Source: a virus | DNA: 64,000 bases | Strand: one strand, 5' to 3' | Virus record (IMG/VR): IMGVR_UViG_3300030107_008258 | Coordinates: 64,001 to 128,000 of that record | In this document: positions 10,414 through 34,422 of the stretch, one piece after another | How the letters are laid out: every line of letters starts with the position of its first letter | Position numbering within the stretch: position 1 is the first letter of the stretch | The notes under the pieces: model-generated | What the model saw: the letters and a program-made list of their open reading frames with translations, nothing else | Told to the model about the DNA's origin: nothing | Database searches by the model: none | Position numbers and translations under genes: made by a program

Positions 10414-10443
10414 ATTCCTAGTGTATTATTACACTATTTTTGG

Positions 10444-33069: not shown

Positions 33070-33576
33070 TTAAGTCATCCACTTTTTTTTGATCTTCTCA
33101 ATATACTCATAACTATCAGAAATAGCTTCTACATAGTCTTTTCCTTTATACTGAACAAAAGAATCCATTGTATATTTTAAAATTTTATGGACTTGAGGGG
33201 CTGACATTTGAGCCGCCATATCATCTGAGAAAAAAGAGGCTAATGTGAAAAAATACTGAGCGTTTTCCTCTGTATGCTTTCGCGGCACTTTAGTCTTTAT
33301 TCGTTTAGCCATCATAATCTGAGGATAAAAAACTCCTAGAAAATCAGAAATATAATTTTTATATTTTTGATCTATAGTTTTAGCCTCTTTATTCACTAAT
33401 AATTTAATAAAAAGGGGAAAGGACAATTCAATCAGCTCTTTTCGAGTGAGTCTTTTAGTGCCGAGTTGCTCTAAAACTAAATCACCATCTCCTTTTTCCT
33501 CGAAAAGAAGATGGGTTCTTTCCTTACTCAATTTTGTTTTCTTGCTCAGAAAACTAATGTCGCTGACCGTCAGCAT
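33070..33576 (-). CDS. Hypothetical protein (probable start ATG 33576, MLTVSD...)
   Basis: The ORF-track TTG start lies in a GC-rich structured leader. ATG 33576 has a GGGUGAG SD 10 nt upstream. Confidence 0.6.
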   Translation of the reverse strand: MLTVSDISFLSKKTKLSKERTHLLFEEKGDGDLVLEQLGTKRLTRKELIELSFPLFIKLLVNKEAKTIDQKYKNYISDFLGVFYPQIMMAKRIKTKVPRKHTEENAQYFFTLASFFSDDMAAQMSAPQVHKILKYTMDSFVQYKGKDYVEAISDSYEYIEKIKKKWMT

Positions 33577-33713
33577 AATAAAGTGGCTCACCCTTTTGTT
33601 TTTTTTGCTACCGTCGCCGCCAACTGGGTGAGGCTCTACTCGCTCGCAATGAGCCAAGTAGCAATAGGTTGCGTCAGCTTTGATTTAAGGTAGCTCAAGT
33701 TGCAACTACTACT
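33577..33713 (-). ncRNA. Candidate structured cis-regulatory 5' leader (riboswitch-like pseudoknot)
   Basis: Complementary segments UUGCUACU/GGUAGCAA, GGCUC/GAGCC, GUUG/CGAC and UCACCC/GGGUGA (the last covers the SD), with an A-rich linker. It follows a GTGTA element at 33721-33725. Confidence 0.5.
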
Positions 33714-33731
33714 TTTAAATTACACTATTGT

Positions 33732-33760
33732 TTGACATATTTCTAAATTACCGCTAAAAT
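33732..33760 (+). promoter_or_regulatory. Sigma-70-type promoter for glycosyltransferase
   Basis: TTGACA (33732-33737), 17-nt spacer, TAAAAT (33755-33760). The ATG is 8 nt downstream. Confidence 0.8.
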
Positions 33761-33768
33761 AATTACGC

Positions 33769-34422
33769 ATGAAGAATATTGTTTTTGCGATTCCGGGTAG
33801 GGAGTTTTCAGGAAATTTTTTACAGTGTTGGACTGACACGGTTTTAAAATGTATGAAGAACGGAATCAACCCATTGCTTTCTAATAGGTTTTCTTCAATG
33901 GTAAGTTATGCACGATGCCTGTGTCTTGGTGCTGATGTAAGACGAGGTATTCATCAGGCGCCATTTGATGGCAAAATCGATTACGAATATATAATGTGGA
34001 TTGACTCGGATATAGTTTTTAGCTTCGATCAAATTCAAAAATTAATTTCCTACGATAAAGATATTGTATCAGGCATTTACAAAACCGAGAACGGGCAAAG
34101 CTTCGCCTGTGTCAAAGACTGGGATCAAGATTTTTACAGAAAGCATGGGTCATTTTATTTTCTGCAGCAAGAGGACGTAGTAAATCATCGCGGCCTTATG
34201 GAAGTCGATTATAATGGCATGGGTTTTATGTTAATTAAAAAAGGAGTATTTGAAAAAGTTGAGTACCCATGGTTTTGCCAACTTAAAAAACAAATTGGTG
34301 ACCTAGAAGATTACTGCTCCGAAGATGTTGCCTTTTGTCACCTTGCAAAAAAAGCTGGATTTAAAATTTTTATTGATCCACAAATTGTTGTGGGTCACGA
34401 GAAAATGAGGATACTAACTTGA
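33769..34422 (+). CDS. Glycosyltransferase, GT-A fold (GT2-like)
   Basis: YIMWIDSD (DxD), GMGFMLIKKGVFE, PWF, SEDVAFC and VGHEK motifs. Confidence 0.85.
   Translation: MKNIVFAIPGREFSGNFLQCWTDTVLKCMKNGINPLLSNRFSSMVSYARCLCLGADVRRGIHQAPFDGKIDYEYIMWIDSDIVFSFDQIQKLISYDKDIVSGIYKTENGQSFACVKDWDQDFYRKHGSFYFLQQEDVVNHRGLMEVDYNGMGFMLIKKGVFEKVEYPWFCQLKKQIGDLEDYCSEDVAFCHLAKKAGFKIFIDPQIVVGHEKMRILT

Follow-up and report, generated by a model that had tools for sequence, protein, structure and literature searches.

A conserved structured RNA precedes a lysis-like gene cassette in a lineage of uncultured marine phages

To our knowledge, very few phage-specific regulatory RNAs of defined fold have been described. 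Here we analyse a candidate for such an element, a structured RNA of about 125 nt encoded on the minus strand of a 64,000-nt window (bases 64001-128000 of the 144-kb IMG/VR record IMGVR_UViG_3300030107_008258), where it is located in a 192-nt gap separating two divergent genes and precedes the gene for a 168-amino-acid (168-aa) protein. The closest described systems are the pseudoknot riboswitches SAM-II, SAM-V and preQ1-I, preQ1-II and preQ1-III, the leader of phage T4 gene 32, and the promoter-proximal RNAs of phages lambda (the PR'-tR' 6S leader) and HK022 (put). As in the riboswitches, a 3' strand of the phage RNA near the start codon can pair with the loop of a helix further upstream, a helix groove could accommodate a purine-rich single strand, and the unpaired nucleotides are highly conserved. 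Unlike them, the phage RNA is much larger, with four helices, its 3' strand lies off Shine-Dalgarno (SD) distance in two of the three clades, its pseudoknot is without covariation support, and it has no covariance-model match even at E 10. With the T4 gene 32 leader it shares a candidate pseudoknot in a phage mRNA, followed by an A/U-rich spacer of variable length to the ATG, and a basic downstream product that could be the binder; the two differ in that they have no sequence or model relationship, and in that the 168-aa protein is not a single-stranded DNA-binding protein and is without a known fold. Like the lambda and HK022 elements, it is a short promoter-proximal RNA at the head of an operon, of lysis genes in the case of lambda and of terminator read-through in the case of put. 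Unlike them, it is not followed by an intrinsic terminator and finds no match in Rfam, and put consists of two simple stem-loops.

The sequence-only reading that drew attention to this leader had proposed an undescribed structured RNA, and this was borne out by comparison with Rfam 15, in which the whole window gave no matches at the gathering score and the RNA alone, taken from the window and from a distant-clade homolog, gave none at E<=10. The families covered included SAM-II (RF00521), SAM-V (RF01826), preQ1-I (RF00522), preQ1-II (RF01054) and preQ1-III (RF02680), together with glnA, Downstream-peptide, EAR and the self-cleaving ribozymes. Weak matches between positions 33300 and 34000 fell only in coding sequence (CDS) or on the other strand. 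A literature search likewise returned no report of a structured RNA or riboswitch before holin or lysis genes. The RNA thus appears to belong to a new family of structured phage leader or non-coding RNA (ncRNA), one that is probably pseudoknotted. Fremin, Bhatt and Kyrpides (2023; PMC10690425) have listed 10,006 candidate structured RNAs from IMG/VR, using a pipeline that required at least three unique regions, and the main text of that paper presents motifs before GP20 and GP32, not the present one. As described there, the catalogue resembles the present case in holding covarying intergenic motifs from IMG/VR phage contigs, some of them consistently upstream of one gene. IMG/VR holds at least six examples of the RNA studied here, which may correspond to one of the catalogue's unnamed DNAVirus_X entries.

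Comparison of homologous loci shows that this segment of the window encodes a real, conserved structured RNA in one lineage of uncultured marine phages, with genomes of about 145-170 kb. We retrieved 5 loci from IMG/VR and 64 from metagenomes, and built a covariance model (R1) from 42 distinct sequences. Searched against the 144-kb genome, R1 gave a single match (137.7 bits, E 7e-27), and every searchable related record, among them a 100% complete genome of 170 kb, likewise yielded one copy. In all 63 loci with sufficient upstream DNA, one copy of the RNA lies between a promoter motif and the ATG of the 168-aa gene. Pattern scans of IMG/VR recovered only contigs that also bear this gene, RNA and gene occurring strictly 1:1, while a scan of 185,579 prokaryote genomes returned five pattern matches, judged to be chance hits, none of which matched R1; the one that was inspected (L077) lies within a coding open reading frame (ORF). 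The lineage is widespread in ocean metagenomes (Tara and others). The DNA before the ATG is conserved in all loci; several of its blocks show no change at all, whereas the gene's first codons differ. Across the three clades identity is 76% for the RNA, 72% for the CDS and 54% for third codon positions of the CDS. No tRNA or tmRNA was found.

By the same comparison, the RNA folds as a single long irregular hairpin, P1-P1b-P2-P3 (Table 1; strands are given throughout on the window's minus strand). In a MAFFT alignment (A3), 97.6% of cells pair, as against 30-49% when the partners are slid, and ten pairs show double changes. In a model-based alignment of the 63 loci (A5), 99.0% of cells pair, as against 33-51%, the number of double-change pairs rises to 13, and the covariation score was reached by 0 of 500 shuffles. 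RNAalifold independently predicts all of P1, P1b, P2 and P3. For P1, 13 haplotypes were observed, four of its six pairs showing double changes, with forms elsewhere including GUUACC/GGUAAC, GUUAUC/GAUAAC, GCUACU/AGUGGC and GUUGUU/AACAAC; P2 is present in 15 haplotypes, among them GUCGGC/GCUGAU, ACUGGC/GUCAGU and AUCGGC/GUCGAU. All the haplotypes of both helices are complementary, with at most one non-standard or gapped position in any. P1b is weaker than either, with 89.7% of cells pairing and double changes in three of three pairs, mostly between clades, and P3 takes the forms AUGCU/AGCAU, AUACU/AGUAU and ACACU/AGUGU in other clades. When these changes were placed on a tree of the neighbouring CDS, the P1 pair 21-105 was seen to have changed five times on each side while staying paired, and individual P2 pairs to have switched state between two and nine times, always still paired. 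Because the pairs switched repeatedly, the covariation signal does not stem from one inherited event. Since the three pairs of the apical hairpin of P3 are invariant, covariation speaks neither for nor against it; within the one lineage that the alignment covers, the P3 cap, the pseudoknot strands and the 5' segment are all invariant and hence outside the reach of this approach.

The evidence for structure comes from the comparison of homologs and not from the window's own sequence: the 156-nt leader has a minimum free energy (MFE) of -42.4 kcal/mol (z = -1.44), 18 of 200 shuffles fold equally well, and a fold no better than that of shuffles gives no evidence of structure. The MFE structures, moreover, differ from the conserved fold. 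Covariation, the absence of which the sequence-only reading had named beforehand as a ground for abandoning its proposal, proved to be abundant, though in helices other than those it had drawn. All the stretches it quoted are present on the minus strand where it had placed them, but the pairings between them fared less well. In its principal stem, UUGCUACU with GGUAGCAA, the 3' arm GGUAGC does pair, but the partner was wrong (61% of cells, with many broken pairs): GGUAGC had been matched to a second copy of GCUAC, when the true partner is the first, GCUACC at 33694-33689. Its two enclosed hairpins, GGCUC/GAGCC and GUUG/CGAC, were not upheld either, pairing across homologs in 68% and 77% of cells respectively, in both cases with many broken pairs, and the competing 5' helix that was to switch with the principal stem has 73% of its cells paired and no covariation.

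The same reading had proposed a pseudoknot between UCACCC (33631-33626) and GGGUGA (33593-33588), with an A-rich linker ahead of the latter. The linker has kept both its composition and its length, which is 12-15 nt in all loci and mostly 13-14, the A run being retained and the 3' part variable. The two strands of the pseudoknot also exist, and are invariant as CUCACCC and GGGUGAG in 63 loci, save for an A to G change in the second that arose three times independently on the tree and retains a U-G wobble pair. That they pair is plausible but unproven. An isolated CUCACCC/GGGUGAG duplex is worth -11.3 kcal/mol. The nested fold alone, at -16 to -30 kcal/mol, is less stable than the MFE (-27 to -34 kcal/mol), but with the duplex added it reaches or passes the MFE in most sequences. 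The topology would plausibly be that of an H-type pseudoknot with P2 as stem 1, in which the 1-nt junction would allow stacking on P2 and the A-rich strand would have to run back along P1 and P2; it is this stem 1, namely P2 extended by P1b and P1, that the comparison of homologs supports.

Table 1. Positions of the RNA, its predicted structural elements and neighbouring features in the window
Feature	Position	Strand	Description
Late-type promoter-like motif TAGTGTAAT	33720..33728	-	Wider block TGTCAAACAWTAGTGTAAT invariant in homologs
Conserved structured RNA	33584..33709	-	126 nt as matched by covariance model R1; begins (A)GUAGUUGCAACUUGAG
10-nt perfect palindrome AGUUGCAACU (P0; possible 3-bp hairpin AGU/ACU)	33698..33707	-	Within invariant 16-nt 5' segment
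P1 5' strand GCUACC	33694-33689	-	Pairs with GGUAGC 33612-33607; 99.6% of cells pair
P1b 5' strand AUC	33684-33682	-	Pairs with GAC 33615-33613; first pair is an A-C mismatch in the window
P2 5' strand GCUGAC	33678-33673	-	Pairs with GUUGGC 33624-33619; 100% of cells pair
P3 5' strand CUACU	33661-33657	-	Pairs with AGUAG 33640-33636
P3 apical hairpin CUC-AUNGC-GAG	33643..33653	-	Invariant save loop N
P3 3' strand AGUAG	33640-33636	-	From RNAalifold and pair counts
Candidate pseudoknot 5' strand CUCACCC	33632-33626	-	In P3-P2 internal loop, 1 nt before P2 3' strand; invariant in 63 loci
P2 3' strand GUUGGC	33624-33619	-	From covariation and RNAalifold
P1b 3' strand GAC	33615-33613	-	From RNAalifold and pair counts
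P1 3' strand GGUAGC	33612-33607	-	From covariation and RNAalifold
A-rich linker (A8 C A4)	33606-33594	-	13 nt, between P1 3' strand and pseudoknot 3' strand
Candidate pseudoknot 3' strand GGGUGAG	33593-33587	-	Invariant apart from A to G
ORF of the 168-aa gene	33070..33576	-	Opens at ATG 33576 (168 aa) or TTG 33657 (195 aa)
Terminator-like hairpin with U-rich tail inside the 168-aa CDS	33514-33485	-	12-14 bp, 60-90 nt into the CDS
Very strong intrinsic terminator closing the lysis-like cassette	32138-32104	-	16-bp stem, then T run
Divergent sigma-70-like promoter TTGACA-17-TAAAAT of the glycosyltransferase-like gene	33732..33760	+	Near-consensus
Glycosyltransferase-like gene (phrog_1574)	33769-34422	+	Sole plus-strand gene of the region

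Turning to how the RNA is likely to be made, the window holds four exact copies of the promoter 10-mer, and the shorter motif (T)AGTGTAA(T) precedes about 17 of its genes. The ATG follows AGTGTAA after 8-27 nt and very often after 8-10, which suggests that many late transcripts are leaderless or nearly so. The copy at 33728-33720 is the exception, lying about 140 nt before ATG 33576, and its GTGTA unit (33725-33721) is, as the sequence-only reading observed, the only such motif in the window that lies well away from any start codon. The promoter motif TAGTGTAAT is invariant across all the homologous loci, where the 8-9 variable nucleotides that follow it give way to an invariant 16-nt block, (A)GUAGUUGCAACUUGAG. 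This block, the beginning of the conserved RNA, has the same register to AGTGTAA (10 nt) as the ATG of leaderless late genes, and is therefore likely to mark the transcription start of the RNA. Other AGTGTAA sites on the minus strand of the window include those at 10435, 16461, 17014, 27845, 57875, 58970 and 61108.

The palindrome AGUUGCAACU within this 5' segment is unique in the genome. In one clade it is replaced by AGCUGCAGCU, a symmetric double change from UA to CG that keeps the palindrome and maps to a single event on the tree. Possible roles for the palindrome are a very small hairpin, a site of RNA dimerisation or an operator in the DNA. Neither a trans target nor a second copy was found when the genome was searched with the palindrome and with the invariant P3 loop motif; a CUCAU match to the early-gene start GUUAUGAG spans 5 nt and was set aside as too short to count.

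What might such an RNA do? Behind it, in order, stand the 168-aa gene, a holin-like gene (64-66 aa, two transmembrane segments), a gene of 69-71 aa, a lipoprotein gene whose product weakly matches an Rz-like spanin and a gene for a secreted protein of about 101 aa, while the divergent glycosyltransferase-like gene lies on the other side; the gene order of the window recurs in the distant-clade locus L048. This order, together with the terminator that closes the cassette, indicates that the RNA heads a lysis-like cassette driven by a late-type promoter. The reading we favour, although we would put it at about an even chance, is that the RNA acts in cis, as a leader to which a trans factor binds and through which the translation or stability of the late lysis-cassette transcript is tuned. 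It would form the 5' leader of a transcript carrying the 168-aa gene and the holin- and spanin-like cassette behind it, and would serve as a binding platform through which the trans factor sets the amount of transcript that is translated or survives. The factor may be a protein or a small ligand; the basic 168-aa product itself is a candidate, in which case it would act as at the pseudoknot operator of T4 gene 32. Such autoregulation could be imagined on circumstantial grounds, namely the basic isoelectric point (pI) of the protein and its RIKTKxPRK loop. Control would be exerted through structure near an SD-less start or through mRNA stability, more likely than through masking of an SD. A conserved, structured, aptamer-like domain in a 5' leader, as the definition of a riboswitch has it, is present here, its membership of the mRNA being deduced from the absence of a terminator: no terminator-like site was found between the RNA and the ATG. 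On this best reading, the leader is functionally closest to the pseudoknot riboswitches and the T4 gene 32 operator.

Several observations weigh against a cis-acting leader. The pseudoknot shows no compensatory change, both ends of the RNA are placed by inference from sequence, and the downstream protein is without a known fold or family. Conservation stops sharply after GGGUGAG, as would be expected of a separate RNA gene, and the spacer from there to the ATG is clade-specific, measuring 10-11 nt in the window's clade and 15 or 22-23 nt in the others. In the most distant RNA-bearing clade (L044-L076), an invariant TATAAT with variable flanks stands 6-7 nt before the ATG (for example L051:1485-1500), and could be a second promoter giving a leaderless transcript that bypasses the RNA. 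Finally, more distant homologs of the 168-aa protein (E 1e-17 to 1e-13) have 33-70 nt of upstream sequence with no R1 match, one of them bearing a TTGACT-17-CATAAT promoter 7 nt before its ATG. From these RNA-less homologs it follows that the 168-aa gene does not need the RNA, which looks like an addition specific to one phage lineage and not an ancient partner of the gene.

Much of this would suit a standalone ncRNA, transcribed from its own late promoter and acting in trans or as a ribonucleoprotein (RNP) with the adjacent basic 168-aa protein, a possibility that we take seriously while considering it clearly less probable than a leader. The invariant promoter and conserved 5' end, the sharp 3' boundary after the pseudoknot strand with its clade-specific spacer, the TATAAT that one clade has immediately ahead of the ATG and the RNA-less relatives of the gene would all be in keeping with it, as would the invariant 16-nt 5' segment, whose 10-nt palindrome could mediate RNA-RNA or RNA-protein contacts, and the strict 1:1 co-occurrence of RNA and gene. 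Yet no terminator-like structure follows the RNA, which is on the same strand as the ATG and just 10-23 nt away from it, and the genome search revealed no complementary target for the invariant loops.

The mechanism advanced by the sequence-only reading was translational control as in SAM-II or preQ1 riboswitches, with GGGUGA as an SD that becomes hidden once a ligand stabilises the pseudoknot. We consider it improbable, and SD burial in general doubtful. The invariant pseudoknot strands and the A-rich linker would be expected of such a switch, GGGUGAG ends 10-11 nt before the ATG in the window's clade, and GGUGA is complementary to the UCACC in the 3' tail of 16S rRNA. However, GGGUGAG is equally invariant at 15 and 22-23 nt in the other clades, so its conservation is better attributed to the RNA fold than to ribosome binding, and GGUGA, given its register on the 16S tail, would require a shorter spacing than GGAGG, not a longer one. 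GGGUGAG is also unlike the SDs of this phage. A GGAG, GAGG or AGGA at -18 to -4 was found for 29 of 147 crudely called genes of the window's genome, leaving about 80% without an SD. The clear SDs of the phage are AGGAG or AAGGA, 7-9 nt ahead of the ATG; AGGAG is the form used by well-expressed genes and by clear cases such as the 363-aa ORF (likely the major capsid gene) and those beside it. The switch helix that was proposed is not conserved, and the SAM-II, SAM-V and preQ1 models returned nothing at the permissive threshold given above. A translational effect is still conceivable in the window's clade, where a knot that ends 10 nt upstream of the ATG could, once folded, hinder 30S loading on an SD-less start.

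Marginally less probable again is a promoter-proximal transcription element, such as a put- or EAR-like RNA or a Q-type pause or engagement site, that modifies RNA polymerase for terminator read-through. In lambda the late leader likewise precedes the lysis genes, and here the RNA comes directly after a late promoter, with an invariant 16-nt initially transcribed segment, and has downstream of it a lysis-like cassette containing both the hairpin at 33514-33485 and the terminator at 32138-32104. That hairpin, however, is strong only in the window's clade (-19 to -26 kcal/mol, with U-G to C-G changes); in the other clades it is reduced to 7 bp and is mostly dictated by the codons of an invariant LFEEK peptide. 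In addition, no antitermination family in Rfam matched and no Q-like gene was identified. The intragenic hairpin is also the source of a weak 'freshwater-2' Rfam match.

It is very improbable that there is no RNA function at all, the conservation being that of an N-terminal coding extension (195 aa from TTG 33657) or of DNA serving divergent promoters: the ORF is indeed open from this TTG, a few close relatives are called at 195 aa and the divergent glycosyltransferase promoter overlaps the far upstream part of the region, but the RNA does not include this promoter, neither coding sequence nor DNA sites would be expected to show compensatory changes in four helices, and of the 120 homolog clusters listed, out of 189 found, nearly all are 168-169 aa long and start MLT, the rare N-terminal extensions differing between clades in sequence and frame. 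The divergent promoter does account for part of the conservation upstream of the RNA.

The same data settle the start of the downstream gene. Given homologs of 168-169 aa that start MLT, and extensions that are not conserved, the start is ATG 33576, and the TTG was rejected: the upstream 27 codons, conservation of which the sequence-only reading had listed as a ground against an RNA leader, are not conserved among homologs. An upstream ORF starting with AUG was also dismissed, as it is found in one clade only, in a frame different from that of the window's TTG, and is not conserved. Marine metagenomes yielded 189 relatives of the protein, with identities reaching down to about 63%. The protein has a pI of 9.35 and an invariant basic loop, RIKTKxPRK, and an AlphaFold 2 model is all-helical, with a predicted local distance difference test score (pLDDT) of 88. 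No family was found for it in Pfam, PHROG or NCBIfam, the ESM Atlas gave nothing, tblastn against GenBank phages returned no match, and Foldseek found no fold match in the PDB or BFVD; the best Z in a wide VIA-align search was 5.3, too low to be meaningful for helical bundles. Its distant homologs (L083, L086) occur in other large phage contigs, where they sit beside methyltransferase, glycosyltransferase or intein-bearing ribonucleotide reductase genes and not beside lysis genes.

As to the phage and its host, the closest relatives of the glycosyltransferase-like protein are 45-47% identical and come nearly all from Synechococcus and Prochlorococcus phages, for example S-TIM5, which offers a hint, and no more, of a marine cyanobacterial host. 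TerL is only about 27% identical to that of any isolate, with no close cultured relative, and no match was found for the 363-aa ORF. Past the end of the window, at record positions 130990-144200, there are 21 copies of GTTATGAG, mostly at the starts of small early-region genes, with TGnTAnaCT-like -10 boxes about 7 nt upstream. This arrangement points to a second, distinct class of leaderless genes with the common start MR(D/E).

Taken together, the comparative support for this RNA is unusually clean: it covers four helices and 13 covarying pairs, and the compensations arose repeatedly and independently. Its invariant loops are of a sort known from RNAs that bind ligands or proteins, and it is small enough for direct in vitro probing and reporter work. 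In a genome whose late genes look mostly leaderless, this RNA is a natural exception and could show how post-transcriptional control is added in such phages. It is tempting to go further and propose a new class of phage ribo-regulator that, late in infection, detects a phage protein or host metabolite and times the lysis cassette, or else an RNP formed with the orphan basic protein, an idea that we hold only tentatively and think on balance unlikely. If it is true, this ribo-regulator would time lysis in an abundant lineage of uncultured marine phages, possibly cyanophages.

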